Source: Gammaproteobacteria bacterium (GTDB lineage Bacteria; Pseudomonadota; Gammaproteobacteria; Steroidobacterales; Foliamicaceae). Taken from it: DNA of 64,000 nt. Shown here one piece after another: positions 22,998 through 51,778 of the stretch. Within the stretch, counting starts at the first letter, position 1; the number at the start of each line of letters is the position of its first letter. The translations under genes and the position numbers were made by a program. The notes below the pieces were generated by a model. It saw nothing but the letters and a program-made list of their open reading frames with translations, did no database searches and had not been told where the DNA came from. The DNA lies in assembly GCA_965213995.1 (NCBI GenBank), contig OZ243929.1, forward strand, positions 385,807 through 449,806. The letters run 5' to 3'.

Positions 22998-23001
22998 GGA
23001 A

Positions 23002-24270: not shown

Positions 24271-24417
24271 TATGGCGCTCCTATGATTGCGCCGACAATC
24301 TTAACCCCTTACCCCAAAGCTCGCCGCGCGGCAGGAGCGCGCGGCGCGGCCAATGTGCTAGATTCGCTCGCCCTACCCCTTACGGGGCGAAACAAGCAAT
24401 TCGGAACGGAAAAAGCA

Positions 24418-30204: not shown

Positions 30205-30220
30205 CCGGCCCGCCGAAAAT

Positions 30221-31018
30221 TCAGCCGCCCTGCAAGCGCCTGATCAGCCGTTCGTCGCAGTAGTCTGCCGTTTCGAAGACCAGGCGCTCCTGCAGCAACT
30301 GAAGCTGATGAACCAGAAACATAATGAAGATGCTGACAAGCAAGGCGAAGAAGGTGGAATTGAAGGCCACGCCCAGGCTTTCAGTCACGCCGCTTATATC
30401 CCCTTCCACGGCCCGGTAGGCCAATGTCAGCGCCTCGCCGATTCCGCGCACCGTTCCGATAAAGCCAATCGACGGAATCGCCCAAGCGATATACCGGATC
30501 ATCGACAGCTCGGATTCCAGCCGCTCCGCCTCGGCATTGACCAGCGACTGGGTGGCGGACGACACGTCCTGCACATTTCCGGTGGCCCCGAACCGCTGCA
30601 ATGCGCTTAGCAGAACACGCGGAAGAAGCAGCCGCTGCTCTCCAGGCGGCAGCGCCCGCAACTGCCGCGCATGTTCGCGGGTATCTTCCGGCAGAATCCG
30701 CATTCCTTCGGCCAGAGGCAAGAGGTCACGCTGCAGCAGCGAACGCTCGCGCAGGGCCCCGCGGGCCTTGTAGCCCATGATCGCCAGCGCCCAGAGCGCC
30801 AGGATCAGGCAGGCCTCCTGCTCGAAGTCGCGCACGATCACGTAGAGGGATCGCTCCGGCACGTATTCCGAGTCCTGCTCCAGGCGGATGCGCTGCTCCT
30901 CCAGAACGGCGCTGGCCTGCGGGCGGATCCAGGCCACATACATCGCATGCACCAGAATCACCGCGAGAAACAGCGAGAACAACTGGAAAACGAACTCGAC
31001 CGGCAACTGCTTTCTCAT
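30221..31018 (-). CDS. MotA/TolQ/ExbB-family proton-channel-like protein (four predicted TM helices)
   Basis: Start at MRKQLPVEF (ATG 31018, overlapping the upstream stop as ATGA). C-terminal block IAWAIPSIGFIGTVRGIGEAL...SLGVAFNSTFFALLVSIFIMFL parallels ExbB/TolQ. The Arg/Gly-rich upstream extension of track ORF 30221..31429 is rejected. Confidence 0.8.
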   Translation of the reverse strand: MRKQLPVEFVFQLFSLFLAVILVHAMYVAWIRPQASAVLEEQRIRLEQDSEYVPERSLYVIVRDFEQEACLILALWALAIMGYKARGALRERSLLQRDLLPLAEGMRILPEDTREHARQLRALPPGEQRLLLPRVLLSALQRFGATGNVQDVSSATQSLVNAEAERLESELSMIRYIAWAIPSIGFIGTVRGIGEALTLAYRAVEGDISGVTESLGVAFNSTFFALLVSIFIMFLVHQLQLLQERLVFETADYCDERLIRRLQGG

Positions 31019-31557
31019 GGCTTTCCCTCCGGCGGCATCCGCCGAATCCGGGGCGGCCGGGGCATCAAAACCCGGCGCAGACGCCCGCTGCCTTCTTCCC
31101 AGACAGCGGCATGCGGAGCGGACCCAAACTCGAGCTCCGCCACCGCGCAGGTGGGAAACTTCCCGTGCAGGATCGCAAAAGCATCCGGCTCGCCCGATCC
31201 GGCCAGGTAGAGCGCCAGCTCCTGCAGCGCGGGATTGTGCCCCACCACCATCAGATCGCCCGCATCCCGCGGCAGCCCGCGAAGGCATCCCAGCACCGCT
31301 TGGGGGCTGAAGGTGTAAAGCGGGCGCAGAACGTCCACGCGCAAGTCCGCCGGCAAGGCCGGCAACACGCCGCACATTGTTTCCACCGCCCTGCGTCCCG
31401 CCGAGCACAGCACCCGCTTGGGCGCGCATCCGGCCGCCGCCAGCTTGCGACCCATCTCGGGCGCGTTGCGGCGCCCGCGAGGCGCCAGCGCGCGGGCGAA
31501 ATCATCCGCCGGCCAAGGCTCGGCCTTGGCGTGGCGAAGCAGCCATAAGCGAGTCAT
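31015..31557 (-). CDS. SixA-type histidine-phosphatase-superfamily protein
   Basis: MTRLWLLRHAKAE (RHA catalytic motif), SAGRRAVETM, and LMVVGHNPALQEL (second catalytic His in the SixA-type GHNP context). Start chosen at 31557; the longer track ORF is rejected. Confidence 0.8.
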   Translation of the reverse strand: MTRLWLLRHAKAEPWPADDFARALAPRGRRNAPEMGRKLAAAGCAPKRVLCSAGRRAVETMCGVLPALPADLRVDVLRPLYTFSPQAVLGCLRGLPRDAGDLMVVGHNPALQELALYLAGSGEPDAFAILHGKFPTCAVAELEFGSAPHAAVWEEGSGRLRRVLMPRPPRIRRMPPEGKP

Positions 31558-31633: not shown

Positions 31634-33832
31634 ATGGAGCCCATGCCACGACCGCTAAGTCCGGCGGAAAACGCCGGCGGCCGGCTGATCAACCGCGAGC
31701 TGTCGTGGCTGCAGTTCAACACCCGGGTTCTTGAGGAAGCCGGCAACGCCAACCATCCGCTGCTGGAGCGCGTGCGTTTCCTGTCGATTTCAGCGAGCAA
31801 CCTCGACGAGTTCTACATGGTGCGGGCGGCCGGCCTCATGGCCCAGGTGGCCGCAGGCGTCGCCCAGGCCAGCGCCGACGGCCTGCAGCCCAGCGAGCAA
31901 CTGCAGGCCATCCGCCAGCAGGTCAAGCGGCTGCTCAAGGCCCAATCGAAGCGCAGCGCAAAACTGCTGGACGAATGCCGCGAAGCGGGCGTGGCCGTGG
32001 CCGGCACCCGGGAACTGGGCGCAAAGGCCCGGGAATGGCTTTCCCGATGGTTCGAGGATCAGCTCTTTCCGGTGCTCACGCCTCAGGCCGTGGACCCCGC
32101 CCATCCGTTTCCGTTCATTCAAAGCGGCTGCCTCGTTTACGTGCTGCGGCTCAAGCGGCCGAGGGACAAGCGCGAATTCAACGGCCTTGTCCTGGTTCCT
32201 CCGCAGATCGAGCGCTTCGTTCGGGTGCCCGGCAAGTCGCTGCGCTTCGTGGCCGTGGAGGATATCGTGGCCCGGCATTTCGGACGCCTGTTCCCTGGCA
32301 TGGAGATACTAGGGCACGGCATATTCCGCATCAGCCGCGACAGCGATCTGGAGATCGACGAGGAAGCCGAGGATTTGGTCCGCACCTTTGAGACTGCCCT
32401 TTTGCGGCGGCGCAGGGGCAATGTGATCCGGGTGGAAGTGGCGGCCGGAATGCCTAAGAATTTCCGCAGATTCGTGCTCAGGGCGTTCGATGCCTCGCAT
32501 GCGCATGTGTTCGATATCGAAGGCATGCTCGGATTGGCGGATATCAAGCAGATCATCGCCGAGGAACGGGCGGACCTGCAGCACGAGCCGCTGAACGTGC
32601 GCTACCCCGAGCGGGTGCGGGAATACGGCGGCGATATTCTCGCCGCAATCCGCGCCAAGGATTTCGTGGTGCATCACCCCTACGAGAGCTTCGACGTGGT
32701 GGTGCAGTTCCTGCGCCGCGCCACCGCCGATCCGGCGGTGGTGGCGATTAAGCAAACCCTTTACCGCACATCGGAAGATTCGCCGATCGTGGAGGCGCTG
32801 ATCGCGGCCGCCGAGGCCGGCAAGCTGGTCACCGCCATGGTGGAGCTCAGGGCGCGTTTCGACGAAGCGGCGAATATTCGCTGGGCCCGCGAGATGGAGC
32901 GGGCCGGCGTGCAGGTGGTGTACGGTTTCGTGGAATTAAAAACCCACGCCAAGGTTTCGCTGGTGGTGCGGCGCGAGGGCGGCAAGCTCCGCACCTACAC
33001 GCATTTCGGAACCGGCAACTACCATCCGGTCAACGCCCGCGTTTACGTGGACCTCAGCTACTTCACCTGCGACGCGGCGCTGGGCCGCGACACGGCCCGC
33101 CTGTTCAACTACATGACCGGCTACGCCACCCCCGAAGATATGGAGAAGCTGGTTTACGCGCCCATGCAACTGAAGGATACGCTGGTGGATCTGATCGACG
33201 CGGAAACCGTGCATGCCCGGGCCGGCCGGCCGGCGGAAATCTGGGCCAAGCTCAATGCGCTGGTGGATCCGGAAATCATCGACTGCCTCTACCGGGCCAG
33301 CCAGGCAGGCGTATCCATCGAGCTCTATGTGCGCGGCATCTGCTGTCTGCGCCCGGGAATCATCGGGCTTTCGGAAAATATCCGTGTGCACAGCATGGTT
33401 GGAAGGTTCCTGGAGCACGCCCGCATCCTTTGCTTTGGCGCCGGACACCAGCTTCCCTCCACCGCAAGCAAGGTCTTTATTTCGTCCGCCGACTGGATGC
33501 CCAGGAACCTGCACAACCGCGTGGAAACCCTAGTGCCAATCGAGAACGAAACCGTTAAAAGGCAGCTGGTGGAACAAGTCCTCATGGCCAACCGCTTTGA
33601 CATCATGCAAAGTTGGGAAATGCAGCCGGACGGCTCCTACCAGCGCCTGCCGCAACCCCCCCGGGCATTCAACGCGCATACCTGGTTCATGACCCATCCC
33701 AGCTTGTCGGGGCGCGGAAGCGCGCTGCGTGAATCGCGCCCCGCCATGCCGGGCGAGCTCTTTCCCAAACACGGGGGCGCCGCGGCTGAAGAAAACGCGC
33801 CGTCCCCCGCCCTAGTGAAAGCCGCCGTCTGA
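31634..33832 (+). CDS. ppk: Polyphosphate kinase 1
   Basis: 732 aa. INRELSWLQFNTRVLEEA N-terminus; two PLD-like HKD-type regions (..THAKVSLVVRRE.., ..FLEHARILCFG..). Confidence 0.95.
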   Translation: MEPMPRPLSPAENAGGRLINRELSWLQFNTRVLEEAGNANHPLLERVRFLSISASNLDEFYMVRAAGLMAQVAAGVAQASADGLQPSEQLQAIRQQVKRLLKAQSKRSAKLLDECREAGVAVAGTRELGAKAREWLSRWFEDQLFPVLTPQAVDPAHPFPFIQSGCLVYVLRLKRPRDKREFNGLVLVPPQIERFVRVPGKSLRFVAVEDIVARHFGRLFPGMEILGHGIFRISRDSDLEIDEEAEDLVRTFETALLRRRRGNVIRVEVAAGMPKNFRRFVLRAFDASHAHVFDIEGMLGLADIKQIIAEERADLQHEPLNVRYPERVREYGGDILAAIRAKDFVVHHPYESFDVVVQFLRRATADPAVVAIKQTLYRTSEDSPIVEALIAAAEAGKLVTAMVELRARFDEAANIRWAREMERAGVQVVYGFVELKTHAKVSLVVRREGGKLRTYTHFGTGNYHPVNARVYVDLSYFTCDAALGRDTARLFNYMTGYATPEDMEKLVYAPMQLKDTLVDLIDAETVHARAGRPAEIWAKLNALVDPEIIDCLYRASQAGVSIELYVRGICCLRPGIIGLSENIRVHSMVGRFLEHARILCFGAGHQLPSTASKVFISSADWMPRNLHNRVETLVPIENETVKRQLVEQVLMANRFDIMQSWEMQPDGSYQRLPQPPRAFNAHTWFMTHPSLSGRGSALRESRPAMPGELFPKHGGAAAEENAPSPALVKAAV

Positions 33833-33838
33833 ACGCTC

Positions 33839-35335
33839 GTGCCAGGCGTGCTGCGAACCACCCCTGCTACCCCGGGCGAGGCGCCGGTGGCGGTCATCGA
33901 TGTGGGCTCCAACTCGGTGCGCTTGGTGGTGTACGAAAACAGCGGACGCGCGCCGCTGCCGATCTTTAACGAAAAGGCCTTGTGCGGCCTGGGCCGGGAA
34001 CTGGACCGCAGCGGCAGGATGGAGGAAAAATCGATCGGCCTGGCGATGGACAGCCTGCGCCGCTTCGCGCAATTATGCCCCCGAATGGGAGTGCGGGATA
34101 TCCATGCCGTGGCCACCGCGGCCGTTCGCGAAGCGAGCAACGGGCCGGAATTTCTGGATAAAGTGCGCGAGCAGTGCGGCCTTGATATCAAGCTGCTGTC
34201 CGGCGCCCGCGAAGCGGAAGTGTCCGCTGCCGGCGTCGTGAGCGCAATTCCCAATGCAAGCGGGCTGGCCGCCGATCTGGGCGGGGCGAGCCTGGAACTG
34301 ATTCTTCTCGATAGCGGCCGGGTCGCCGAGAGCATTTCCCTGCCGTTCGGCACAGTGCGCCGAAACAGCGCCGAACCGCTTGCCCAGAGCCGCAAGGCGG
34401 TTGCGTACCGGCTTGCGGCCCTGGATTGGCTGCGGCAGGCCCGGAGCCAGCGCCTATACCTGGTTGGGGGCGCCTGGCGGGCGCTGGCACAGATGCATAT
34501 GGATGAAACGGGCTACCCGCTGCATGTGATTCACCACTACGCGCTCGACGCGCGCGCTGCCGGCGATTTTTGCGCCGCGCTGGCCGGCTGGCCACGCGAG
34601 CGTCTGGAAGCCGCCAAGGGATTGCGCGCGGACAGGCTGGAATCGCTGCCGTTTGCGGCAGCCGTTATCGACTGCCTGCTACAGCGGACTTGCGCCGGCC
34701 AGATCGTGTTTTCCGCCAACGGATTGCGTGAAGGCTGCCTGTACAAAGCCCTGCCCCCGCTGGAGCGGGAAATGGATCCGCTTTTGTCGATATGCGAAAC
34801 CACAGCGCGACGCATGGGACGCGGCGGCTCCGGCGGCGATTTGCTGGCCGAATGGATCGCTCCGGCGCTCGACGGCGTGGCCCCGCGCAAGCTTCGTCTG
34901 GCTGCATGCCACTTGTCCGATATCGGCTGGTCCGAACACCCCGATTACCGCGCCGAGCAGGTATTTCTCCGCATACTGCGCATGCCGCTCACAGGCGCCG
35001 ATCACCGCGAACGGGTGATGCTGGGGCTGGCCGTCGCCTCGCGACACGCCTCTTTGGGTTCGAGCCTCAAGAGGCTGGGCCTGCGCCAGCTCATCAACAG
35101 GGAGGAAGAGCGCCAATCGACCGTGACCGGGCTGGCCATGCGCCTTGCCTACACGATCTCGGGCGGGGCCTTGAGCGTGCTCAGACAGTTTCGTTTGCAG
35201 CGGACATCGAAGACGCTGGTGCTGACCGGACCTGAGGATGGCCAAATACTGGTTGGAAACACCGTGCAGCGCCGCCTGCGCACGCTGGCGGAAAAACTGG
35301 GATTGGATCATGCCATTCGACTGTCGGGCCGCTAG
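33839..35335 (+). CDS. ppx: Exopolyphosphatase (Ppx/GppA family)
   Basis: VAVIDVGSNSVRLVVYE..., GGASLEL, and ~500 aa in total. Immediately downstream of ppk (6-nt gap, GTG start). Confidence 0.9.
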   Translation: MPGVLRTTPATPGEAPVAVIDVGSNSVRLVVYENSGRAPLPIFNEKALCGLGRELDRSGRMEEKSIGLAMDSLRRFAQLCPRMGVRDIHAVATAAVREASNGPEFLDKVREQCGLDIKLLSGAREAEVSAAGVVSAIPNASGLAADLGGASLELILLDSGRVAESISLPFGTVRRNSAEPLAQSRKAVAYRLAALDWLRQARSQRLYLVGGAWRALAQMHMDETGYPLHVIHHYALDARAAGDFCAALAGWPRERLEAAKGLRADRLESLPFAAAVIDCLLQRTCAGQIVFSANGLREGCLYKALPPLEREMDPLLSICETTARRMGRGGSGGDLLAEWIAPALDGVAPRKLRLAACHLSDIGWSEHPDYRAEQVFLRILRMPLTGADHRERVMLGLAVASRHASLGSSLKRLGLRQLINREEERQSTVTGLAMRLAYTISGGALSVLRQFRLQRTSKTLVLTGPEDGQILVGNTVQRRLRTLAEKLGLDHAIRLSGR

Positions 35336-35386: not shown

Positions 35387-35800
35387 TCAGATATCAGTCG
35401 GCCAGACGACGGGGTTGTCTGCCGAAAGCGGCTCGGACGGCGTGAATTCCTCCAGTACCTCCTCGTTCCCTAGCGCTTCCTCAATGCGCGCCAGATCCTC
35501 TTCGATGGAGGCGACCTCGGCGGACAACTCCGGTTGCGTATCTGGCGCATCTTCGCCTGAAGCTTCGGAACCAAGGGCTGCGTCGCTGAAAGACGGGAGG
35601 GCATTGTTGCCCGCAGGATCAATGCTCCCGCTCTCCGGAGAGGCTTCGATTCCAAGCAGCGCGCCATTCCCGGGCGACTCCGCCTCCGCGGCGGAGCGAT
35701 CCTGCGACTGGAACCCGAGCCAGCGGCCCGCCTGGCCGGCGGCCCAAGTGAGGCTGATGCCGAGACCGATAACAGCGATGACGCCGGATAATTTCCTCAT
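35387..35800 (-). CDS. Small acidic, probably secreted/anchored low-complexity protein
   Basis: 137 aa. N-terminal hydrophobic segment (VIAVIGLGISLTWAAG), then a Glu/Asp/Ser-rich sequence. Its ATG overlaps the upstream stop (ATGA at 35797-35800). Confidence 0.5.
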   Translation of the reverse strand: MRKLSGVIAVIGLGISLTWAAGQAGRWLGFQSQDRSAAEAESPGNGALLGIEASPESGSIDPAGNNALPSFSDAALGSEASGEDAPDTQPELSAEVASIEEDLARIEEALGNEEVLEEFTPSEPLSADNPVVWPTDI

Positions 35801-38214
35801 TCCTGTGCCTGCAACTCCGCATGGCGGGCCAAACGAAATCCTACATCGACCCGTTCCTCGGCACCGAAATCCCGGAACGCCCAGCGCAATTCGCGCAGAG
35901 TGCCATGCAGCCAGCTTGAGCCCCGTATCACCTTGAAGCGTCCTTCCTGCGGCCCCTGCGGATCGATCTCCACGCCGGGGTAGAGCGTATCCGCGCTGTA
36001 GTAATCACCCATCCACTCGGCCGCGTTGCCGCTAAGATCGTGGAATCCGAGCGGATTGGCCGGAAAGCTGCCCACCGGCGCGGTAAAAGCGAAATTGTCG
36101 TTGTAGCTCGCGAGCACGTTGCTTACCAGAGCGCTGGCCGACTGATCGGCGTAGTTGCCGGCGCGCGATGGCGGCGGCATCCGCTCGCCCCAAGGGTACC
36201 GCGAGCTGCCGCCGCCCTGGTAGCGCGCCGCCCAAACCCATTCGGCCTCGCTGGGCAGCCGATATCCTGCGCCCGGCTCGGCCACCGGAACCAGCCGGCC
36301 GGCTCGACTCTGGTACTGAAGCGGCAAACCCTCCTGCGAGCTTAGCCAGTTGCAGAAAGCGGCCGCTGCCTGCCAATCCATATTCACCGCAGGGCTGGAC
36401 TCGTTGGCCAGCGCGCGAAAACGCTCCGCGCCCGAGGTATGAGTGGGCGCAAAGGCCTTGAATTCGCGGTTCGTCACTTCCTTCACGCCCAAGTAATAGC
36501 GCTTGGTGATCCGCACCTTGCGGAGCACCTCATTGCTTCGCCAGCCCTGCGAGCCGCGCTGCGCGCCCATCTCGAATTCGCCCGGAAACAGCATCACCAT
36601 TCTGGCCCCCTGCGAGGTTTCGATTTCCTTGGGTTGCTGCGCCAGCCTATGCTCCTGCGGCGTGAGCAGCTCGACAGCCACTTCCTGCGGATAGGCGGGT
36701 TGAGGCACCACCTTGCGCTGCTGGGCCACGTAGCCTTCCCGCCGAAATTCGAGTTCGTGCTCGGTGGCCGGCAGTTGCAGCTCGATGGGAGCATGTCCCG
36801 CCAGCTCGCCGTTCACCAGCACCGCCGCCCCCTCAGGCCGACTCAGCGCCCGAATGGCTCCCAAGCGCGGCTCAAGGCGGATATTGAGCGTTTGCTCAGC
36901 GCCCCGCGCCAGCGTAACGAGGCGTTCCTGCGACTCATAGCCTGCGCGCGCCGCCACCACCCGGTGGGCGCGGTCCGGAACCACTTCCACAGTGGCAGGC
37001 GTGCCGCCGCGAAAGTCGCCGTTCACGGTGATGCTGGCGCCAGGAGGATCGGTGAGCACCCGAAGAACGCCCGCTGCGGGCTGGAGGCGCACGGTGGGCA
37101 GCACTTGCGGCGAACCGGCCACTACAGCCAACTCTTCGCGGTGTGTTGCGTACCCCGGCCGGGAAAAAGCCAGCACACGCTGGCCGGACAGCAATTCCAC
37201 AGTGGCGGGCGTGGTTCCCAGCAGCCTATTCCCCGAGCGAAGCTCGGCGCCGGCGGGCTCGCTGCTCACAGTGATCGCCGCCCAGTCCGGTTCCAGTTGC
37301 GCCGCGAAGATCTCCCGTTCGCCGCCGCCACCCACGGTTAGCGGAATATCCAGGTTCTTGTAGCGGGGCGCGCTGATGGACAGCGCCCAGGTTCCGGGCT
37401 CCAGCGCGATTTCCTCGCCGGACGCGAAAACGCCTTCCACTCCCCCCACCCGGATTTCCGCGCCGTCCACGCTATCCACGACCACAAGCCCGGGCAGAAG
37501 CCGCAAATCAAAGCGAAACGCCTCGTCTCCGCCGCCAAGCACTTCGATTCGCTCGTCGAGCGGATGATGCCGCGCGAGCTCTGCCCGCACCCGGTATTCG
37601 CCTTTCCAAAGCAGATAGCGCGGCCCTATGTGCGGGGCAACCAGCGCCCCGTCAACTTCAACGCTGGCTTCCGGCGGCGACACCTCGATCAGAACGCCTT
37701 CGGCGGTAAACACGAAGATGGCGCTCGCCGCAAGGAGCGCGAGGGCCAGCCCCGCCGCCATGCGCAGCCACAGACCGCCCTTGCGCGATCGCGCAGGCCG
37801 GACGCTGGCGGCGGGCCTTTGAACGCGGATCGATTCGCCCGATTCGATATCGCCGGCCAGCTCCGGCGGACGGGTATCCCAAGCCCGCGCCAAGTACCGC
37901 GCGCTCAGCCGCATCGCCTGCGGAGAAACCGAGTCAACCGTCACTTCCGCCCCGGCGATGGACAAACGGTCGCCCTCGCCGAGCCAGCGGGCGCCGCTCA
38001 CGGCCTGTCCGTTCAATTGCAGGCCGGAAACGCCCGCATAGCACTGCACCAGCGCCCGGCCGTCGAGAACATTGATGCTGGCCGCCGGAGGCGCGGAGGG
38101 CGGGCCGGGCAAGCGGATATGCGAACCCGCGCCGCTGCCGAGAAGAACGGGCAAATCACCCGCCCGAAGAACGCGCTCGCCTTCCGGCAGCCCGAGAATC
38201 ACTTCAGCCGTCAT
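35797..38214 (-). CDS. Degenerate FHA-like N-domain + TM + five PEGA repeats + C-terminal FGE/SUMF1-type (formylglycine-generating-enzyme-like) domain
   Basis: N-terminus ..LLGSGAGSHIRLPG...LQLNGQAV...GDRLSIAGAEVTV. TM GLWLRMAAGLALALLAASAIFVF. PEGA-type repeats (SSEPAGAELRSGNRLLGTTP..., TDPPGASITVNGDFRGGTP..., SRPEGAAVLVNGELAGHAP...). FGE block (GEFEMGAQRG...YYLGVKEVTNREFKAF...YRLPSEAEWVWAAR...HDLSGNAAEWMGDYY...VIRGSSW...GFRLAR). Confidence 0.85.
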   Translation of the reverse strand: MTAEVILGLPEGERVLRAGDLPVLLGSGAGSHIRLPGPPSAPPAASINVLDGRALVQCYAGVSGLQLNGQAVSGARWLGEGDRLSIAGAEVTVDSVSPQAMRLSARYLARAWDTRPPELAGDIESGESIRVQRPAASVRPARSRKGGLWLRMAAGLALALLAASAIFVFTAEGVLIEVSPPEASVEVDGALVAPHIGPRYLLWKGEYRVRAELARHHPLDERIEVLGGGDEAFRFDLRLLPGLVVVDSVDGAEIRVGGVEGVFASGEEIALEPGTWALSISAPRYKNLDIPLTVGGGGEREIFAAQLEPDWAAITVSSEPAGAELRSGNRLLGTTPATVELLSGQRVLAFSRPGYATHREELAVVAGSPQVLPTVRLQPAAGVLRVLTDPPGASITVNGDFRGGTPATVEVVPDRAHRVVAARAGYESQERLVTLARGAEQTLNIRLEPRLGAIRALSRPEGAAVLVNGELAGHAPIELQLPATEHELEFRREGYVAQQRKVVPQPAYPQEVAVELLTPQEHRLAQQPKEIETSQGARMVMLFPGEFEMGAQRGSQGWRSNEVLRKVRITKRYYLGVKEVTNREFKAFAPTHTSGAERFRALANESSPAVNMDWQAAAAFCNWLSSQEGLPLQYQSRAGRLVPVAEPGAGYRLPSEAEWVWAARYQGGGSSRYPWGERMPPPSRAGNYADQSASALVSNVLASYNDNFAFTAPVGSFPANPLGFHDLSGNAAEWMGDYYSADTLYPGVEIDPQGPQEGRFKVIRGSSWLHGTLRELRWAFRDFGAEERVDVGFRLARHAELQAQE

Positions 38215-38255
38215 GCTGCGGCCTCAACCGGCCATCGTGCAGAAGAAGCCGGTCA

Positions 38256-40595
38256 TCAAACCGGTTCGGTGCAGATCAGCACCAAAGGCTCGGGAAGCCC
38301 CTCGGGCGCAACGACAAACTCGCGGCGCACATCGCGATAGCCATTGCGTGTGCCCACGGCCGTATAGGCGCCGGGCCGGAGCTGAAGGACGCGGTTGTCA
38401 AAGCTCCCCAGGCGACCGACGTGATAAATGGTGACCTCGGTGAGGCCATCGGAGCGCAGCCGCACCGGAGCCGGCGTGGCGGCCACCCGCAGGGTCTGGT
38501 CCAGCCGCTCAATCTGACCGCTCAGCCGCGGCCCCGGAGCCGCAATGCCGGCCGCCTCGTCGAGCAGGCTTCGGCCCTGCTGCCAGGCATCGTCGCGATT
38601 CAGCCTGCGGCTGTTGGCAATAGTGCTTTCCAGATCGTCATCGAGGCCCGCCCGCCGCTGCGCCTCAGCCAGCCCCCGTTGCGCGGCGACGATATTTGAA
38701 TCGATCTCCAGCATTGCGCGGTAGCTGTCCGCAGCCTTGCGCCAATCTTCCGAAAACTTGCCGGCCATCGCCGCCGCCTGCAATTGGGCTAGGCGCTGGC
38801 CGCGTTCCTCCAGCTCCAGCGCCGCCAGCGCCTCGGCTGGCGCCGGATCGCCGGGGCGCTGTTTCAGCGCCGCCTCGAAAGCGGTGCGGGCAACCGCCAC
38901 GTCCCCCTCCGCCAGGGCCGCATGGCCGCGCGACATGCGCGAGACAAAAAGACGTCGTTCGATAGCGGCATTCACCTCAGCCAGCGCTGAGCGCGCCGAA
39001 TTGCGCCCAGGATCAATATCCAGCACGGCGCGCCAGGCGGCGCGCTGCTCCTCAAGGCCGCCTTCCCGCCTAGCGGCCCGGGCTGCGGCCACCGCTTGCA
39101 TGATTTCGGGAAGCCTGGCGGCCCGGCCGTACGCCGATTGGACCTCGGGATCGGTTTCCCCCAGCAGTATGCGGGCCTTCTCAAGCTCCGCCATTGCGCC
39201 AGCCTGGTCGCCCGACTCGATCGCCTCCAACGCTGCCTCCAGGGCGTTGCGGCCGATCTCCGGCGCCTGCCCGCGCAGTTCGCGCAGCATGCCACCTGCC
39301 TTGCCGTATGCGACTCGCGCCTGCGGATACTCGCGCCGCCGATAGGCATCGTCGCCCTTTTGCTCCTCCTCGAGCGCCCGCTCCCAGAGTCCGCCCGACC
39401 ACAGCGACGGCTGCAGCGAGGCCAAGTAGTTGCGATCCTGCAGCATTCCGCCCATCGCCTCGTCGGCCGCGTCCCGTTGCATCCGCATCAGTTGCATGTC
39501 CTGGCGAGGCGCCTCCTCCGGCTCCCGAACAATGCGCTCGACAACCGGCCGATTCTCCGCGCGCTCCTCAACCATTCGAGGCAAAACCAGGAACAATACC
39601 GCTGCGGCAACCAGCAGCAGGCCGCCTAGCGCATACGCCAGCCAGACCGGAACCCCCGCGCGCCTCTGTAGCGCGGGCGACGGCGAACGGTCAGCGGCGC
39701 GCGCGCGCGCCACAATCGCAGATGCTTGGGCCGACCCTTCCTCCGCTGCGGATTCCGTCAGGATTTCCTCAAAACCAACCCTTGCCGCCTGCGCCGTTAC
39801 AGGCCTGCGCGCCTTGTCATGCGACAGCATCGCCGCCACGAGTTCCACCAAAGCCTCCGGAAGCGGCGGCAGCCCCTCGGGCGCCGCAGGTCCAGCGGGC
39901 GGCCCGGCGCGAATGCGCTCCTCGCTAATATCCGGCGCATGGGGCGGAAAACCGCACAGCAACTCGTAGGCAACGCAGCCCAGCGCATAGATATCGTCGC
40001 TGGCTTGGGCAGGTTCGCCCGCGCACTGCTGCGGGCTCATGTAGGCCAGCGAACCGCCCTCTCGCCGGATACGCCCGTCCGGCTCGGCATCTGCCAGCCG
40101 GGCGGCGCCGAAATCGGTGAGCCGGGCAGCGCCGGACTCGTCCAGCAGGATATTCCGCGGTTTGAGATCGCCATGGATCACTCCCTTGCGATGCGCGTAC
40201 GCCAGCGCGTCGCAAACCGGCAGAAGCCGCCGCAGGCTTTCGCTCCATGGCTTGCACGGCGATTCGCCGATAGAGCCCCCCGAAAAGGCGGGCATGGTCA
40301 GGAAGTGGCAGCCATCTTCCGAGTGAAATTCAATCGGGCGGGCGATGCCCGGATGAACCAGGGACTGCGCCAGGTCAAATTCGCGGCGGAAGCGATCGAG
40401 CAAAGCCGGATGCCGGGCATGGTCATCGGCGAGCACCTTCACCGCCAACTGCGCGCCTGCGGCTGCATCCTCGGCAAGCCAAACCTCGCTCGACCCGCCG
40501 GCGCCCAGCTTGCGAACCAGACGGTAGCGCGATGCCAGCAGTTCTCCTTGTTTTCGGTTCGTCATGGCGGGAGGAGCCGCAAGAAGGGAGGGCAT
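38256..40595 (-). CDS. Hanks-type Ser/Thr protein kinase + TM + TPR-like periplasmic region + C-terminal PEGA-like module
   Basis: LGAGGSSEVW (Gly loop), LAVKVL (VAIK), HGDLKPRNILL (catalytic loop, HGD i.e. non-RD), DFGAA, YMSPQQ. TM VWLAYALGGLLLVAAAVLFLVL. The tail LRPGAYTAVGTRNGYRDVRREFVV is PEGA-like. Confidence 0.9.
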   Translation of the reverse strand: MPSLLAAPPAMTNRKQGELLASRYRLVRKLGAGGSSEVWLAEDAAAGAQLAVKVLADDHARHPALLDRFRREFDLAQSLVHPGIARPIEFHSEDGCHFLTMPAFSGGSIGESPCKPWSESLRRLLPVCDALAYAHRKGVIHGDLKPRNILLDESGAARLTDFGAARLADAEPDGRIRREGGSLAYMSPQQCAGEPAQASDDIYALGCVAYELLCGFPPHAPDISEERIRAGPPAGPAAPEGLPPLPEALVELVAAMLSHDKARRPVTAQAARVGFEEILTESAAEEGSAQASAIVARARAADRSPSPALQRRAGVPVWLAYALGGLLLVAAAVLFLVLPRMVEERAENRPVVERIVREPEEAPRQDMQLMRMQRDAADEAMGGMLQDRNYLASLQPSLWSGGLWERALEEEQKGDDAYRRREYPQARVAYGKAGGMLRELRGQAPEIGRNALEAALEAIESGDQAGAMAELEKARILLGETDPEVQSAYGRAARLPEIMQAVAAARAARREGGLEEQRAAWRAVLDIDPGRNSARSALAEVNAAIERRLFVSRMSRGHAALAEGDVAVARTAFEAALKQRPGDPAPAEALAALELEERGQRLAQLQAAAMAGKFSEDWRKAADSYRAMLEIDSNIVAAQRGLAEAQRRAGLDDDLESTIANSRRLNRDDAWQQGRSLLDEAAGIAAPGPRLSGQIERLDQTLRVAATPAPVRLRSDGLTEVTIYHVGRLGSFDNRVLQLRPGAYTAVGTRNGYRDVRREFVVAPEGLPEPLVLICTEPV

Positions 40596-40640
40596 CCTGC
40601 GCCTGCTAAAGGCTCAATGAGGGCTTGATGTCCCCGTTCG

Positions 40641-41846
40641 CTATTGCTCCCCAAGGCCCGGCATGTCCAAGGCGCCGGTCTCGCGGCTGTAGATTTCCTG
40701 CAAAAGACGGCGCCATTCACGAAACCGCTCCTCGGCGGACCCGGTCAACCGCCGGGTCTGGCCTTCCAGCTCCACCACCACCGGCTCGGCTTCGGACTCG
40801 AACGACTCGCCCGCCTCGCGCAGCGCCTCGGCATGCAACCGGGCTTCCTCCCGGCGGCTCAGGCCGCTCTGGATCCCCATAAAGCCGCCCTGAACGGCAG
40901 TGGTCGTTACACCCATGTTGTCGCCGCCACTGGCCTCGTAGGCAATGGCGCCCAGTATGCTGAGCACCCCCAGCAACATGCGCGTATTGGCCGACCGGCG
41001 CATTTCCTCGTAGCTCATGCGGCCTTCACGGGCCATGCGCCGCCAGTCTGTATAGGTTTGATCCAGGCCGTGGTAAAGGTTGGCGTAGTGCTCGTTGACG
41101 GCATCGATCAGCGCGTATTCCCGCTCCCGAACCTTGCGCATCCGGGCGACCATGGGTTCGCTGGACGCTGGCAGGCGCTTGACTTGGTAGCGCCCGTCCC
41201 CATCCTGCTCCAAGTAACCCTCGAAAGCCTGCGGGACTAGGCTGAGGCCGTAGCGCAAATCGCTCACATCGCGAATTCGCTGCAGCTCGCGATCGCTGAG
41301 TTGAGCCCGGGCCTTGAGAAGATCATTCGCGATCTCGTTATAGATTTTCTGATACGGATCCTGGCCAGGTCCGGTATTGCGGACATAAGCTTGTTCGGCC
41401 ACCTCCATCTCGTACTTTTTCTCGAACCACTCGCGGCCGGAAGCGTCCCAGGCGCCCACGCGCAGTTTCGCGCTATAGCCGTCGGAATGGTCGATCCGCG
41501 CGGCGATATGAATATCCGTAACGGGACTGAAATCGGGCAGCACGCTGACGGCGCCCCAGAATCCGGTGGATTCCAGCGTATTCTTGAGGTGATAGGGCAT
41601 GTAGCGCGCTTCCGCGCGGCGGATCTCCGGAAAGATGAACCGGTTGTTGAGTTCCTGCTCGCCGACATCATCGGGCACTCCCGCGTCAAAAACCAGAATG
41701 CCCACGCTCAGCAGCTGCTCCTGCGCGATATCGGTTTCCGTCCGTGCCAGAGGCACCTCGATATACTGCACCTCGCGCGACGATGTGCATGCCGCCAGCA
41801 TGGCCGCGCAGGCCAGCATGCCGAAAAATGCGTTGGTTTTTTTCAC
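40641..41846 (-). CDS. Lipoprotein of unknown function (401 aa)
   Basis: GTG start at 41846 overlaps the upstream stop (GTGA) and is preceded by GGGAG. Lipobox AMLAAC. No family recognised. A hydrophobic/Gly-rich C-terminal segment is present (LLGVLSILGAIAYEASGG). Confidence 0.65.
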   Translation of the reverse strand: MKKTNAFFGMLACAAMLAACTSSREVQYIEVPLARTETDIAQEQLLSVGILVFDAGVPDDVGEQELNNRFIFPEIRRAEARYMPYHLKNTLESTGFWGAVSVLPDFSPVTDIHIAARIDHSDGYSAKLRVGAWDASGREWFEKKYEMEVAEQAYVRNTGPGQDPYQKIYNEIANDLLKARAQLSDRELQRIRDVSDLRYGLSLVPQAFEGYLEQDGDGRYQVKRLPASSEPMVARMRKVREREYALIDAVNEHYANLYHGLDQTYTDWRRMAREGRMSYEEMRRSANTRMLLGVLSILGAIAYEASGGDNMGVTTTAVQGGFMGIQSGLSRREEARLHAEALREAGESFESEAEPVVVELEGQTRRLTGSAEERFREWRRLLQEIYSRETGALDMPGLGEQ

Positions 41847-42874
41847 TTTGCTCCCAGCCCCATGTGCTTGCGGTACTCCTCCCACAAGGCTTCGCGTATG
41901 CGCGAATCCTCTTCCTGCTCCGCCGCTTCGCGGATCTGCCGCGCCACTTGGTCCTCGCTGCCGGCGGCTTTGGCGATATCCTCGGGAATCTCGACCTTCG
42001 GCTCCGACCGGGCATCCGCTGCGCCGCCTCTGCCGCCGCCCTCCTGCGGACCGCCGCCGCTTTCGCCGCCGCCGTCACCTGCTGGCTTGCCGTCCGTGCG
42101 GGCATTGCCGGAACTCCGGCCGCCGCCGCTCTCGCCGCCGGAGGCATTCGGAATCGTGACCATCGGCCCGCCTGCGCCGCCAGCGCCACCCATCATGCCG
42201 CCCATGCCGCCGGAGCCGCTGGCGGCGCCCTGTCCGGACGCAGCCATGGCGCCGCGCTCACGAGCAATTTCGCGGTCGTAGCCTTCCATGGATTCACGCA
42301 ATACGCCTTCGAGGTCGCCTTGCCCGCCGGCTCCGCGCTCCCTGCCTGATCCGCCTCTCTGAGCGGCGGAACCGCTGGATGCGCCCCGTCCGCCGGTTGA
42401 ACCCATCGAGCCGCCCGTAGATCCCCGTGAACTGCCCGACGATCCTACCGAAACGCTGGGAGAGCCTACCCTGGCGCTCGGAGATCCCACCGAGCCGCCG
42501 GATGAACCACCCATTGAACCCGCCGAGACGCCAGGAGAGCCCACCGAGGCGCTCGGAGAACCCACCGAGCCGCCGGATGAACCGCCCATTGAACCCGCCG
42601 AAACGCTAGGGGAACCCACCGACGCGCTCGGAGAGCCCACCGAACCGCCGGACGAGCCGCCCATTGAACCCGCCGAAACGCCGGGAGAACCTGCCGACGC
42701 GCTCGGAGAGCCTGCCGAGCGACCGGAGGAACCCGGGCTTCCGCCAGCTGGCGGCATGGATACCGGAGGACCGCCCGCCGGCGAGGCAACGCCGCCTGTT
42801 GTATTGCAGCCGCCAGCAACCAGCGCTGCGGAAAGCGCCAAGGAAACACTCAGCAAACAATGGGTCGGTTTCAT
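41843..42874 (-). CDS. Gly/Ser-rich tandem-repeat lipoprotein with charged helical C-terminus
   Basis: MKPTHCLLSVSLALSAALVAGGC (probable lipobox). About 3.9 copies of a 25-aa unit (SAGSMGGSSGGSVGSPSASVGSPxV). C-terminal EDIAKAAGSEDQVARQIREAAEQEEDSRIREALWEEYRKH. The upstream extension of the track ORF is rejected. Confidence 0.65.
   Translation of the reverse strand: MKPTHCLLSVSLALSAALVAGGCNTTGGVASPAGGPPVSMPPAGGSPGSSGRSAGSPSASAGSPGVSAGSMGGSSGGSVGSPSASVGSPSVSAGSMGGSSGGSVGSPSASVGSPGVSAGSMGGSSGGSVGSPSARVGSPSVSVGSSGSSRGSTGGSMGSTGGRGASSGSAAQRGGSGRERGAGGQGDLEGVLRESMEGYDREIARERGAMAASGQGAASGSGGMGGMMGGAGGAGGPMVTIPNASGGESGGGRSSGNARTDGKPAGDGGGESGGGPQEGGGRGGAADARSEPKVEIPEDIAKAAGSEDQVARQIREAAEQEEDSRIREALWEEYRKHMGLGAK
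42450..42745. repeat. 75-bp tandem repeat, ~3.9 copies, inside the lipoprotein gene
   Basis: The landmark ccattgaacc recurs at 42511, 42586 and 42661 (period 75). The units are near-identical with scattered substitutions and keep the reading frame (25 codons). Confidence 0.9.
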
Positions 42875-42960
42875 TTCACAGTCCAGTGAGCCGCGTTGAG
42901 TAAGGATAGTATCACCTGCACACGAACGAGACGTTGGCCTATATCCATCAGATGCGCTAA

Positions 42961-43161
42961 TCAGCCTCCGCGTTGCTTTTGGTACTCCTCGTAACTCAGG
43001 CGGCCGCCGCGAACCGCCGGCGGATAGTGCCCATACCGCTCTTGCTCGCGATTCTGCCGATACCGCCGCGCCAGCCAAGCCGCTAGATTGAACAGCACAA
43101 AAGCCACCGCCAGCACGGCGCCGAAATTATCAATCACAGACCAGAACAGATCCAAGGCCAA
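42961..43161 (-). CDS. Possible small single-TM protein (66 aa), first ORF of the kinase operon
   Basis: TTG start. TM FGAVLAVAFVLFNLAAWLA, then a basic/polar tail. There is no clear RBS, and a short ORF in G+C-rich DNA could be spurious. Confidence 0.3.
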   Translation of the reverse strand: MALDLFWSVIDNFGAVLAVAFVLFNLAAWLARRYRQNREQERYGHYPPAVRGGRLSYEEYQKQRGG

Positions 43162-43265: not shown

Positions 43266-43784
43266 ATGCGCGTCCGATACCGAAACCTGATTGCCGCCGT
43301 TTTCCTGGCAGGCGTGATCGCTGCCATTTGGCGGCTTCAGGACAGCGAGGCCAGCACCACCTTGCTTCTATTGACGGCAGCCGAGCGGCTGGCCGGGGAC
43401 TCGGCCTCGCTAAGCGCTGCCGGCCTGGCCAGGGCCGAGGCCTTGAGCCGTCTGGCGGGGGAGCTTGCGAGGCCGGAAATGCTGGCTGGCATCTTTAGCG
43501 CCGGCGGAGAGCCGGAGCGCGAAACAGTGCGCCTGCTGTCCGAACGGCTTGGGCAACCGATCAGCGATGTTCTGATCGAGGATCCGGGCGCTTTCGCGCA
43601 CGGTCTGGCGAGGCAGCACCGCGGCAAGGTCGTGGTGGTGGTGGCCCGCGCCGAACTGGCTTCCGCCTTGCTGGCCGAGTGGGACGCCGCCGCCCTGAAT
43701 CTGGAAGGACCCGCTCCCGGGCGGCTGCATCTGATCAGCCTGCCCGCATTCGGCCAACCGCGCACCCTGATGCTGAATTACTGA
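43266..43784 (+). CDS. Hypothetical membrane-anchored protein; possible catalytically dead histidine-phosphatase-fold (SixA-like) protein
   Basis: N-terminal anchor (LIAAVFLAGVIAAIW). TLLLLTAAERL / IFSAGGEPERETVRLL / KVVVVVARAELASALL line up with LWLLRHAKAE / VLCSAGRRAVETMCGV / LMVVGHNPALQELALYL of the SixA-like gene at 31015..31557, but RH reads TA and H reads A. Confidence 0.45.
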   Translation: MRVRYRNLIAAVFLAGVIAAIWRLQDSEASTTLLLLTAAERLAGDSASLSAAGLARAEALSRLAGELARPEMLAGIFSAGGEPERETVRLLSERLGQPISDVLIEDPGAFAHGLARQHRGKVVVVVARAELASALLAEWDAAALNLEGPAPGRLHLISLPAFGQPRTLMLNY

Positions 43785-46222: not shown

Positions 46223-46497
46223 GAGCGAATCAAAACCGCCTTAATCACCGCCCCGCCGACAAATTGCATGAATCCGGTGCGGTAGCGCAAAACGGAGAAA
46301 TCGATGATGCCGGACGATTTGGTAAACTTTTGGAAAGCGAGAGCGAGGTTTGGGGATTCATGGCACTGAGTCACTCGCGATATGGATCGAGAATGATCAG
46401 ATATTCTAGCGAAAAAAAGTTCGCAACTTATCGCAAATTTCTGCGGCTGCAGATCCGTGAACGGTTAGGATCAGGGCGATTGCTCGACGCGGGCGCC

Positions 46498-47649
46498 ATG
46501 GCGATGAGGGTGCTGATTGCTTGCGTGCTCGTTGGGCACTCAGCAACGGCGCAAGAGCCAAGGGATCTGGCGGACGAATACCGCCGCCTGCCTGCTGAAT
46601 GGCCTGCCTTTATCGTCGATCCAAGCGTGCAGGCCGAGGATATCGGTCCGCTGCCGCCCTTGCCGCCCATTGCTTGGCATACGCCCGTAAGCGAAGCGCT
46701 GGGCAAGCTGCTTTTCTTCGATCCGCGGCTTTCGGGCTCCGGCCAACTGGCATGCGTCAGCTGCCATGATCCGCAGCTGGGCTGGGGCGACGGCAGGCGC
46801 GTGTCTGCGGGGCACGGACGGCGAGCCGGACGGCGCAATGCGATGACCCTCCTCAACGCCGCTTATTTCGAGCGGCTGTTCTGGGACGGGCGCGCGGAAG
46901 GCCTGCTCGACCTGGCGCTTCAACCGATCCGAAGCCCTGACGAAATGAATGCGAATATCGCCGATATCATTGCGCGGCTTGAATCTGTCGGCGGCTATCC
47001 TGAGGCGTTCGAGGCCGCCTTCGGCTCGCCGGACGTTTCCGGGCAGCGAATCGCGCAAGCCATCGCGTCGTTCGTCCGCGCGCTGGTCTCCTCGCCAAGC
47101 CGCTTCGACCGCTTTGCCCGGGGCGAATACGCCCGCCTGAGCGAAAAGGAGATCGAAGGCTTGCACCTGTTCCGCACCCGGGCCGGCTGCATGAACTGCC
47201 ATAGCGGCCCACTTTTCTCCGACGGCGGGTTCCACCACACGGGGCTAAGCTATTACGGAAGGCGGTTCGAAGATCTCGGAAGATTTGAAATCACCGGAAA
47301 TCCCGAGGACCGCGGCAGGTTCCGCACCCCCTCGCTGCGCAATATCCGGCATACTGGGCCGTGGATGCATAACGGGCTGTTCACTAACTTCGAGGGGATT
47401 CTGCGCATGTATAACCAAGGCATCACGTTTGCCGCCCGCCCGCGCCCGGGCGCCCCCAGCTTATCGCCGCTGATCCGTCCGCTGGGTCTGGACAGTGGGG
47501 AACTGGAGGCGCTGGAGGCCTTTCTCGGAGCTTTGGGCCGCAAGCCGCCATTCATGGAGCCGCCTGCGCTGCCGGGCATGGCCCAATCCGCAAACAGCGC
47601 CAAGGCGGCATCCTTCGCCGCCGCCCATGCAGCCGCCACAGGCACGTAA
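46498..47649 (+). CDS. Di-haem cytochrome c peroxidase / MauG-family protein
   Basis: Two CxxCH motifs (CVSCH, CMNCH) and FRTPSLRNIRHTGPWMHNG. Signal peptide from MAMRVLIACVLVGHSATA (start 46498; the longer track ORF is rejected). Confidence 0.85.
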   Translation: MAMRVLIACVLVGHSATAQEPRDLADEYRRLPAEWPAFIVDPSVQAEDIGPLPPLPPIAWHTPVSEALGKLLFFDPRLSGSGQLACVSCHDPQLGWGDGRRVSAGHGRRAGRRNAMTLLNAAYFERLFWDGRAEGLLDLALQPIRSPDEMNANIADIIARLESVGGYPEAFEAAFGSPDVSGQRIAQAIASFVRALVSSPSRFDRFARGEYARLSEKEIEGLHLFRTRAGCMNCHSGPLFSDGGFHHTGLSYYGRRFEDLGRFEITGNPEDRGRFRTPSLRNIRHTGPWMHNGLFTNFEGILRMYNQGITFAARPRPGAPSLSPLIRPLGLDSGELEALEAFLGALGRKPPFMEPPALPGMAQSANSAKAASFAAAHAAATGT

Positions 47650-47660
47650 AGAAACACGCC

Positions 47661-50204: not shown

Positions 50205-50270
50205 CCCGCCTAGTGTGCCGAAGGACGTGAAGGCCACGCAGGATTTTTCCCGCCTGCGCGCGCTCGCGAT

Positions 50271-51773: not shown

Positions 51774-51778
51774 GGCCG

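Follow-up and report, generated by a model that had tools for sequence, protein, structure and literature searches.

A conserved cluster of about nine genes joins a putative MotA-type motor to a Hanks kinase and an FHA adaptor in Foliamicaceae and related bacteria

The stretch analysed here, referred to below as the window, comprises 64,000 nucleotides of contig OZ243929.1 (positions 385,807 to 449,806 of the forward strand; assembly GCA_965213995.1) from a gammaproteobacterium of the family Foliamicaceae. Its minus strand carries a kinase operon (35387-43161) and a second operon coding for a MotA-like protein, an FHA protein and a vWA protein (27696-31557). Comparison with related loci strongly supports that both operons are functionally one unit, and the resulting cluster is a conserved uncharacterised system of about nine genes. 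In an earlier note, made from the letters alone, the kinase operon had been described as a six-gene unit; the actual unit is this larger cluster, split in the window by a lineage-specific ppk-ppx/SixA insertion. The reading that we favour, and hold to be probable, is that of a proton-driven envelope motor of the MotA type regulated by phosphorylation, which would follow the logic of the threonine phosphorylation pathway (TPP) of type VI secretion systems (T6SS) with another output. More tentatively, and with clearly less confidence, the cluster may stand for a previously unrecognised class of trans-envelope machine, that is, a vWA/MIDAS-headed (metal-ion-dependent adhesion site) motor of the MotA family gated by Ser/Thr phosphorylation via an Hsp70-like/FHA adaptor and provided with a new outer-membrane-coupling apparatus (periplasmic scaffold, lipoproteins and secreted peptide ligand). 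The genes of the cluster are, in the window:

42962-43161, minus strand: small protein of 66 amino acids (aa) with a single transmembrane (TM) segment, first gene of the kinase operon, read from the open reading frame (ORF).
41843-42874, minus strand: Gly/Ser-rich lipoprotein of 343 aa, with lipobox LVAGGC, a long low-complexity tether and a C-terminal acidic helix, VARQIREAAEQEEDSRIREALWEEYRKH.
40641-41846, minus strand: lipoprotein of 401 aa (lipo401), with GTG start and lipobox LAAC; core component.
38256-40595, minus strand: bitopic Hanks Ser/Thr kinase of 779 aa (Pfam Pkinase), with the TM segment at about residues 323-345.
35797-38214, minus strand: bitopic PEGA-FGE protein of 805 aa, a putative scaffold or co-receptor, with an FHA-like domain (about residues 1-100), a linker, a TM segment (about 158-180), five PEGA repeats and an FGE fold.
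35387-35800, minus strand: small secreted acidic protein of 137 aa, with signal peptide, acidic low-complexity region and conserved C-terminus, EEFTPSEPLSADNPVVWPTDI.
30221-31018, minus strand: MotA/TolQ/ExbB-family proton-channel subunit of 265 aa, with four hydrophobic segments and a cytoplasmic loop at about residues 84-172.
28783-30204, minus strand: cytoplasmic Hsp70-like/FHA adaptor of 473 aa, with an NBD-like (nucleotide-binding domain) part (residues 1-340), a disordered linker (341-370) and a C-terminal FHA domain.
27696-28793, minus strand: vWA protein, in which a TolR/ExbD-like helix with Asp15, FSMSFLDIITCGFGAVVLFFVII, is followed by about 100 residues of coiled coil and then by the vWA domain, on the periplasmic side.

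The reading starts from gene content, folds, conservation, synteny and co-variation, all of them observed. As had been noted earlier, the six ORFs of the kinase operon are co-directional on the minus strand, and both of its 4-nt overlaps are in place: GTGA at 41843-41846, between the genes of the 343-aa and 401-aa lipoproteins, and ATGA at 35797-35800, between those of the 805-aa and 137-aa proteins. Two samples of related loci were compared, one from a scan of a genome collection seeded on the FHA adaptor, which gave 59 loci (Foliamicales, Woeseiaceae and Steroidobacteraceae) onto which the window proteins were mapped, and the other from a metagenome scan seeded and anchored on the vWA protein. 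The genes follow one another on one strand in the order G-rich lipoprotein, lipo401, kinase, PEGA-FGE, small protein, MotA_ExbB, FHA adaptor and vWA, with tiny gaps or overlaps (medians of -3, +18 and -7 nt). In the genome loci outside Foliamicales that have enough upstream DNA, the genes for PEGA-FGE (41/41), the kinase (37/37) and lipo401 (32/32, at 38-45% identity) are contiguous on the same strand; the same holds for the metagenome loci anchored on vWA, where the counts are 41/41, 34/34 and 21/21, respectively. Loci with this order were also found via PEGA-FGE homologues at 34-39% identity, and the metagenome scan with the vWA alignment retrieved the same family only (41-50% identity), distant TPH-vWA systems of the Idiomarina type being beyond its reach. 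In all, the adjacency of the kinase genes to the MotA, FHA and vWA genes is kept in more than 100 loci from three family- or order-level lineages, with order and strand of every component conserved, which is far above chance. The nearest relatives of the window are sponge-associated and other 'Candidatus Foliamicus'/Foliamicales metagenome-assembled genomes (MAGs), locus L065 being about 99% identical to it over the operon. L065 was reached through a lipoprotein of 100% identity, a look-up of the exact kinase sequence having given no match. The link between the kinase operon and the MotA/FHA/vWA operon, proposed in the earlier note, has thus been upheld by the co-occurrence analysis: wherever the flanking DNA of a related genome is long enough, both occur together, contiguously outside Foliamicales.

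In the window, the two halves of the cluster are separated by the following genes:

31634-35335, plus strand: ppk (31634-33832) and ppx (33839-35335), assigned by Pfam; an insertion on the opposite strand that splits the cluster and is not part of the system.
31015-31557, minus strand: SixA-like protein of the histidine-phosphatase superfamily, 180 aa (His_Phos_1, E 1.4e-4), ATGA-coupled to the MotA start.

The ppk-ppx pair stands between the halves in all Foliamicales loci and in none of those from Woeseiaceae or Steroidobacteraceae, and its functional linkage to the system was rejected as lineage-specific. The SixA-like protein scores 45.6 bits with TIGR00249 (sixA), below the cut-off of 74.5, and tblastn matches to its gene are confined to the 13 Foliamicales loci; the protein might take the place of the phosphatase in a system that lacks PP2C, or the gene might simply be part of the insertion. 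The same gap in locus L066 (17068-21230) also holds an insertion sequence (IS) element with a DDE transposase and a TonB-dependent receptor gene. The junction between the cluster halves behaves as an insertion hotspot.

Natural variants of the cluster separate a core from a regulatory layer. The presence of kinase domain and adaptor was scored by hidden Markov model searches on both strands, in counts that include some duplicate or closely related loci: both were found in 69 loci, neither in 7, the adaptor without the kinase domain in 1 (L096), and the kinase domain without the adaptor in 0. Eight loci are devoid of the kinase catalytic domain on either strand (L147, L148, L075, L081, L082, L083, L086 and L096). 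There, the 'kinase' gene codes for the TM-TPR-PEGA-like part alone, aligning to residues ~330-779 of the window kinase, and in all of them except L096 the adaptor gene is missing as well, so that MotA directly abuts vWA. On the tree of vWA and MotA, the loci without kinase domain and adaptor do not group together: one lineage is basal, the other nested. Kinase domain and adaptor thus come and go as a single evolutionary module on top of a core machine, and nothing else argues as strongly for their working together. The kinase-less loci keep the lipoproteins, the small protein and PEGA-FGE, in most cases including the FHA-like domain of the latter, and they also keep MotA and both vWA paralogues; because they are retained in these lineages, the periplasmic proteins encoded in the kinase operon are parts of the core machine, and the optional regulatory layer is the kinase domain and the FHA adaptor only. 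The kinase operon had been seen earlier as an upstream cascade feeding a separate output, a view that is too simple, since its TM-TPR-PEGA-like part, PEGA-FGE, lipoproteins and small protein persist without kinase domain and adaptor. The basal kinase-less variant (L147 and L148, labelled as a Planctomycetota MAG) carries, on the same strand after the second vWA gene, a gene for an RHS/YD-shell protein of more than 1000 aa (15979-19059 and 11815-13779, respectively), which may be a hint of cargo or a coincidence.

Within the motor half, the MotA-like protein matches Pfam MotA_ExbB (PF01618) with E 4e-14 and 52.8 bits against a cut-off of 22.9; its start, judged from homologues, is MRKQLPVE (31018) rather than that of a 402-aa ORF. 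Thr189 and Thr222, 33 residues apart in the last two helices, are invariant in all 115 alignments that reach them, a spacing found also in TolQ and ExbB. The cluster contains no gene for TolR, ExbD or MotB. Because of its TolR/ExbD-like helix, in which Asp15 is invariant even in the downstream paralogue, the vWA protein can be taken as the missing partner, putatively a dimeric stator partner of the MotA-like protein. Its MIDAS is complete (D172-x-S174-x-S176, T267, D296), the Pfam VWA_2 match being weak. A second vWA paralogue follows the first in most relatives (Woeseiaceae and Steroidobacteraceae loci); there is no second copy in the window and no vWA2-type match in the Foliamicales loci. 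Just downstream of the second vWA, 24 Woeseiaceae loci have a gene for an OmpA-family, peptidoglycan-binding protein with glycine-zipper and coiled coil (17512-18234 in L002), instead of which the Steroidobacteraceae-type loci show one extra lipoprotein upstream and another downstream; neither the OmpA-family gene nor the extra lipoproteins are present in the window.

The adaptor is recognised by Pfam through its FHA domain (E 3.6e-8), in which S413, R414, H416, S432 and N439 are conserved and the arginine of the 'GR' motif is replaced. Its AlphaFold2 (AF2) model (pLDDT 86.3) was matched by Foldseek to the NBD of DnaK (E ~1e-15, TM-score 0.72), and its profile gave weak Ssz1/Hsp110 matches among PDB sequences; the N-terminal 340 residues are accordingly modelled as an Hsp70/DnaK-NBD-like, actin-fold domain fused to the FHA domain. 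This full-length architecture is found in about 1,243 clusters at 50% identity (E<=1e-30, full HMMER search). The disordered linker bears no conserved Ser or Thr, the conserved positions being all in the folded parts.

The kinase matches Pfam Pkinase at residues 24-270 (E 3.5e-35), and the motifs read from its translation in the earlier note (LGAGGSSEVW, LAVKVL, HGDLKPRNILL and DFGAA) were all recovered. The catalytic residues are complete in the window protein (K53, HGD141-143, N148 and DFG161-163) and conserved among 40 homologues, except for a change of the beta3 Lys to Arg in 8. These eight belong to a Steroidobacteraceae-like subclade (L003, L029, L030, L038, L039, L057, L058 and L064) in which the Gly loop is degenerate, HRD...N and DFG are intact, and the clusters are otherwise complete. 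The non-RD character that had been pointed out is real for the window protein and a minority state of the family, HGD occurring in 5/40 members and HRD in most. The kinase domain is cytoplasmic; beyond the TM segment, the protein continues as a periplasmic helical, TPR-like region and ends in a PEGA-like beta domain that is conserved, as had been suggested for both parts, the former with a weak match below the Pfam cut-off (TPR_2, E 1e-4) and the latter with moderate support from hhalign (Prob 70-86%). No conserved Thr is present in the juxtamembrane region.

The 805-aa protein, for which 61 homologues were collected, shows the architecture that had been read from its sequence, Pfam and hhalign confirming the degenerate FHA-like N-domain, the PEGA repeats and the C-terminal FGE/SUMF1-type domain. 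Pfam identifies PEGA (E 2e-36) and FGE-sulfatase (PF03781; residues 537-797, E 8e-41, 140.8 bits), and self-comparison of the hhalign profile delimits the five repeats at 174-237, 242-309, 312-372, 382-449 and 452-516. The FHA-like domain has no Pfam match; its profile (46 homologues) aligns with the FHA of the adaptor family over 82 columns (hhalign Prob 95.9%, E 5.9e-9). Of the residues that bind phosphothreonine, this domain lacks GR and S-x-x-H across the PEGA-FGE family and keeps N-G alone; the domain is retained in kinase-less lineages. Regarding the FGE fold, solved FGE structures are matched at E 1e-17 and PorK structures at E 2.8e-13. The catalytic Cys pair of FGE is located after the RGGS motif. 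In the 805-aa protein this active-site pair is replaced (RGSSWLHGTLRELRW), the sequence RGSSWLHGTLRELRWAFR has no Cys, and in the alignment to the solved structures '...GGSFLCH' of FGE stands against an ending 'GSSWL.H', which points to a non-catalytic FGE domain. The association of kinases with FGE-sulfatase domains is a generic theme of proteobacterial Ser/Thr kinases (bioRxiv 10.1101/2025.01.12.632604).

Two short cytoplasmic motifs co-vary with the regulatory layer:

30668-30697, minus strand: motif ILPEDTREHA (Thr113; consensus ILPEDTRE[FHY]A), residues 108-117 of the MotA loop; candidate docking or phosphorylation site for the adaptor.
37861-37881, minus strand: WDTRPPE, a T-x-P-P island (Thr114) in the cytoplasmic linker of PEGA-FGE; candidate phospho-acceptor.

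In the 105 loci bearing the adaptor, the MotA motif is near-invariant, and position 113 is Thr in 95, Ser in 5, Ala in 4 and Val in 1. On the other hand, the motif is degenerate in all nine adaptor-less loci, where the same position is Thr in three, Ser in one and Ala in five. The motif follows the adaptor in all four lineage types, and this fits the suggestion of the earlier note that the MotA-like loop is a possible target. As for PEGA-FGE, Thr114 is invariant in 46/46 kinase-bearing homologues within an otherwise variable linker, and the T-x-P-P motif is lost in L096, which has lost only the kinase domain, close sister loci keeping DTAPP. Taken together, and with few independent events, the alignments suggest one link between the T-x-P-P site and the kinase and another between the MotA motif and the adaptor. 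L096 (and L092), in which kinase domain and T-x-P-P are lost and adaptor and ILPEDTRE are kept, represent the only mixed state seen. Thr146 of the MotA loop (T-x-x-I/V) was also considered as an FHA site; it is Thr in 104 adaptor loci and Ser in 1, and was rejected because, like Thr189 and Thr222, it is conserved in the adaptor-less class too.

In the favoured reading of a phospho-regulated motor, the core would consist of a MotA/TolQ-like channel and a partner in which the proton-binding Asp would sit in the TolR-like helix, while the coiled coil would lift a MIDAS-competent vWA head across the periplasm. PEGA-FGE, the TM-TPR-PEGA-like protein, the two lipoproteins and the secreted peptide ligand would form a scaffold around this motor. 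Depending on how things stand in the periplasmic assembly, the kinase domain would phosphorylate a conserved cytoplasmic Thr, the best candidates being Thr114 of PEGA-FGE and Thr113 of MotA; once its FHA domain has recognised the phosphothreonine, the adaptor would bind to the MotA loop, and this docking would switch, gate or assemble the proton-driven motor. We infer the composition of the core machine from conservation, domain content and one published in silico model, and the regulatory layer from co-variation; the phosphorylation event, the residue modified, the docking of the adaptor and a 5:2 stoichiometry are deduced in the same manner.

Several points weigh against this reading. The localisation of the lipoproteins and the formation of a complex are predictions. 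No PP2C-type phosphatase has been found in the conserved cluster or among the window ORFs scanned. The kinases with Arg at beta3 (8/40) may be weak, atypical or pseudokinases. The adaptor FHA has no canonical 'GR' Arg, so that binding of phosphothreonine is not assured, and the ATP-binding motifs of the NBD-like domain look degenerate. Regarding the candidate sites, position 113 of MotA is Ala or Val in 5/105 adaptor-bearing loci, the nested kinase-less clade has lost the PP of T-x-P-P and kept the Thr, and the basal kinase-less outgroup L147 keeps T-L-L-P-P-P-E. Finally, no more than two to three independent evolutionary events underlie the co-variation. A PP2C_2 gene located about 5 kb upstream in L002 is not conserved.

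Among the alternatives, the one with most weight, which we consider rather unlikely, is a relay similar to that of Fha1, in which the kinase would phosphorylate the adaptor itself, or would phosphorylate itself and then be bound by the adaptor, and the MotA-loop and T-x-P-P motifs would be constitutive interfaces. In fact, PpkA phosphorylates Fha1/TagH in the prototype TPP (review PMC13584744), the adaptor has a disordered linker of 30 residues, and the retention of adaptor and ILPEDTRE in L092 and L096, with no kinase domain in the locus, fits a MotA-adaptor interface independent of phosphorylation. However, that linker has no conserved Ser or Thr, the kinase juxtamembrane region has no conserved Thr, and T-x-P-P vanishes together with the kinase domain in L096. 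Far less probable is a TPP controlling a T6SS encoded elsewhere, with the proximity of MotA and vWA being incidental. The vocabulary is shared (Hanks kinase, FHA, FGE fold, TagR being COG1262, and lipoproteins), and the best NCBIfam match of the adaptor is TagH (TIGR03354, VI_FHA), although with 31.3 bits against a cut-off of 120.25 and over the FHA domain only; moreover, the adjacency of MotA, FHA and vWA genes described above is kept across lineages, PP2C and TagS/T are lacking, and the periplasmic domain of the kinase is TPR-like and not vWA. The earlier note had reported no T6SS genes in the window, and this was borne out: none appears among the larger ORFs scanned, nor in the Pfam-annotated flanks of eight related loci (L001-L005, L065, L066 and L147).

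An anti-phage defence of the Zorya type on a MotA-type motor also seems very improbable. Zorya uses a MotAB-like motor, the kinase domain matches the Ser/Thr-kinase models of PADLOC (e.g., PD-T4-6 and mad6), and the RHS/YD-shell gene stands after the cluster in L147; but the PADLOC kinase matches are generic, MotA, adaptor, PEGA-FGE, lipoproteins and small protein give none, and those of the vWA protein are weak and of coiled-coil type (E 5e-4 to 6e-3). In addition, the context is one of housekeeping genes with uniform GC, the synteny is inherited across whole families and not patchy, and there is no conserved nuclease or other effector. Very slight, too, is the chance that the kinase module regulates polyphosphate metabolism: ppk, ppx and the SixA-like gene do lie inside the cluster in all Foliamicales loci, yet ppk-ppx are on the opposite strand and absent from all Woeseiaceae and Steroidobacteraceae clusters, and the gap that they occupy, with IS and TonB-dependent receptor in L066, behaves as an insertion site.

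The H1-T6SS TPP of P. aeruginosa (PpkA/PppA/Fha1/TagQRST) resembles the cluster in having a bitopic Hanks kinase, a cytoplasmic FHA protein, a periplasmic FGE fold (COG1262), lipoprotein(s) and a vWA domain somewhere, and by analogy the state of the envelope could here too be converted into a phosphothreonine mark read by FHA. In contrast, the motor partner rather than the kinase bears the vWA, the FGE fold forms part of a membrane protein with PEGA repeats, PP2C and TagS/T are missing, the FHA protein has an Hsp70-like domain, and the output would be a motor of the MotA family. When the TagR/TagQ/TagS/T set was looked for, an FGE-fold domain and lipoproteins were present and ABC-type genes were not. 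Therefore, of the TPP-like parts list that had been proposed, the analogy of logic stands and membership of the pathway does not, given the lack of PP2C and TagS/T and the failure of the TagH model. The closest mechanistic precedent is that of Agrobacterium tumefaciens, where PpkA phosphorylates a Thr of the inner-membrane protein TssL, Fha binds it and the machine is activated (PMC3953482); the target there is a T6SS membrane protein, whereas the candidates here are the MotA loop and the PEGA-FGE linker.

Putative motors formed by a TolQ-like protein and a transpore-helix vWA (TPH-vWA) protein have been described in silico, by genome mining, as a class without tolR/exbD and of unknown function (Mol Biol Evol 2025, PMC12204202). 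By its described features, this class is like the cluster: a MotA/TolQ-family gene is linked to a TM-anchored vWA, with a TolR-like Asp helix and conserved Thr. The vWA genes form a heterologous pair in that class and also in most relatives here, the window having a single one. The paper makes no mention of a kinase (the word occurs 0 times), FHA, FGE-fold protein or lipoproteins (PMC12204202). With the 5:2 motors MotAB, ExbBD and TolQR the cluster shares the MotA_ExbB domain, the two invariant Thr 33 residues apart and a partner helix with an Asp of the essential type; unlike them, its partner is a coiled coil with vWA, with no TolR/ExbD/MotB periplasmic domain and no transducer of the TonB/TolA type. 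Another analogy is offered by the GldLM-PorLM motor and PorK/GldK of gliding and the type IX secretion system (T9SS), which would have in common with the cluster a proton-driven motor, a single-TM partner spanning the periplasm, a non-catalytic FGE fold and lipoproteins. In fact, the FGE domain finds its best NCBIfam match in GldK (TIGR03525), with E 4e-28 and 98.7 bits where the cut-off is 350; unlike PorK/GldK, however, the 805-aa protein is bitopic with an internal TM segment and has no lipobox, further T9SS genes are lacking, and the bacterium belongs to the Gammaproteobacteria. Proteins of the YscD/PrgH type from type III secretion systems combine a degenerate cytoplasmic FHA-like domain of non-phosphopeptide type, one TM segment and repeated periplasmic beta domains, a likeness to the 805-aa protein in architecture only. 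The periplasmic repeats here are, in contrast, PEGA with an FGE fold.

Motors of the MotA/TolQ/ExbB type power flagella, TonB-dependent uptake, Tol-Pal, gliding/T9SS and Zorya defence. Except for those of flagella, little is known of how they are turned on and off. The cluster offers a compact natural example of such a motor onto which, it appears, a eukaryote-like kinase has been bolted together with an FHA reader, with natural variants lacking the regulator available for comparison and specific residues to address (MotA Thr113, PEGA-FGE Thr114 and vWA Asp15). If the proposal is true, this would be the first control of a MotA/TolQ/ExbB-type motor by a Hanks kinase, and the apparatus might serve functions such as force-dependent adhesion, outer-membrane remodelling or export. 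It would also mean that the TPP logic is not specific to T6SS, and the cluster gives a full parts list to the orphan TolQ-like/TPH-vWA motors, reported in silico only, in 2025. The family is abundant in bacteria from marine sediment (Woeseiaceae), soil (Steroidobacteraceae) and sponges as symbionts (Foliamicales). In the literature searched, we found no description of this cluster and no link of Ser/Thr signalling to this motor family, and the conflict-system paper PMC7159879 does not contain it.

The small genes and lipoproteins of the kinase operon, whose earlier description was confirmed by ORF reading, signal peptide and lipoboxes, match no family in Pfam, NCBIfam or PADLOC (66-aa TM protein, both lipoproteins and 137-aa secreted protein). 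The 66-aa protein has a homologue of 67% identity in L001, a gene of 62-65 aa being called in L001, L065 and L066, and it is seen in Foliamicales relatives only. The Gly/Ser lipoprotein, with the same architecture and C-terminal motif, is coded directly upstream of lipo401 in nearly all related loci; across them the lipobox is constant, the G/S tether variable and the C-terminal helix strongly conserved. The tether is marked in the window by one further feature:

42448-42733, strand not assigned: tandem repeat of 75 bp in 3.8 copies (Tandem Repeats Finder), coding for a 25-aa G/S repeat of the 343-aa lipoprotein.

In the 99%-identical strain of L065 this region is exactly 75 bp, i.e., one unit, shorter, and the copy number is polymorphic. 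The lipo401 family has 628 homologues, all without name or Pfam match. Its AF2 model (mean pLDDT 65.9) is only moderate, with a well-modelled N-domain; Foldseek gave just weak TolB-N/LptE/PqiC-like matches (E 4e-3 or weaker), insufficient to assign a fold, and a profile search of PDB sequences returned nothing. The design of the 137-aa protein, with its C-terminal motif F[VIT]P[ST][EQ]..xD....[FW]P[ST][DN]I, recurs in nearly all loci at the same place, with the PEGA-FGE gene on one side and the MotA gene on the other, and an ORF with this motif is also kept in the kinase-less L147.

The cluster lies in a chromosomal stretch of 65% GC with housekeeping genes (gyrA, rpsA, aroA and cmk) and TonB systems, and a scan of the window DNA for promoters and terminators was uninformative. 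Divergent from the kinase operon, a gene for a hypothetical protein of 172 aa with an N-terminal TM segment (43266-43784, plus strand), without family match, occupies the same position in L001, L065 and L066. A protein of 1161 aa with FG-GAP/ASPIC-UnbV and cadherin/Big_9-like domains (22936-26421, plus strand) is coded a few kb from the cluster, and an FG-GAP protein is also found near that of L066. A conventional TonB system (46264-52597), with di-haem cytochrome c peroxidase, TonB-dependent receptor, ExbB (50271-50960) and TonB (51779-52597), has no obvious link to the motor cluster. Finally, restriction-modification or defence-like fragments are scattered at 7-1645, 20449-21606 and 54458-55615, including an HATPase_c_4 ORF (recG C-terminal type), an N-terminal fragment of a type I HsdR, a DUF4143 AAA ATPase and an N6/N4 DNA methylase.

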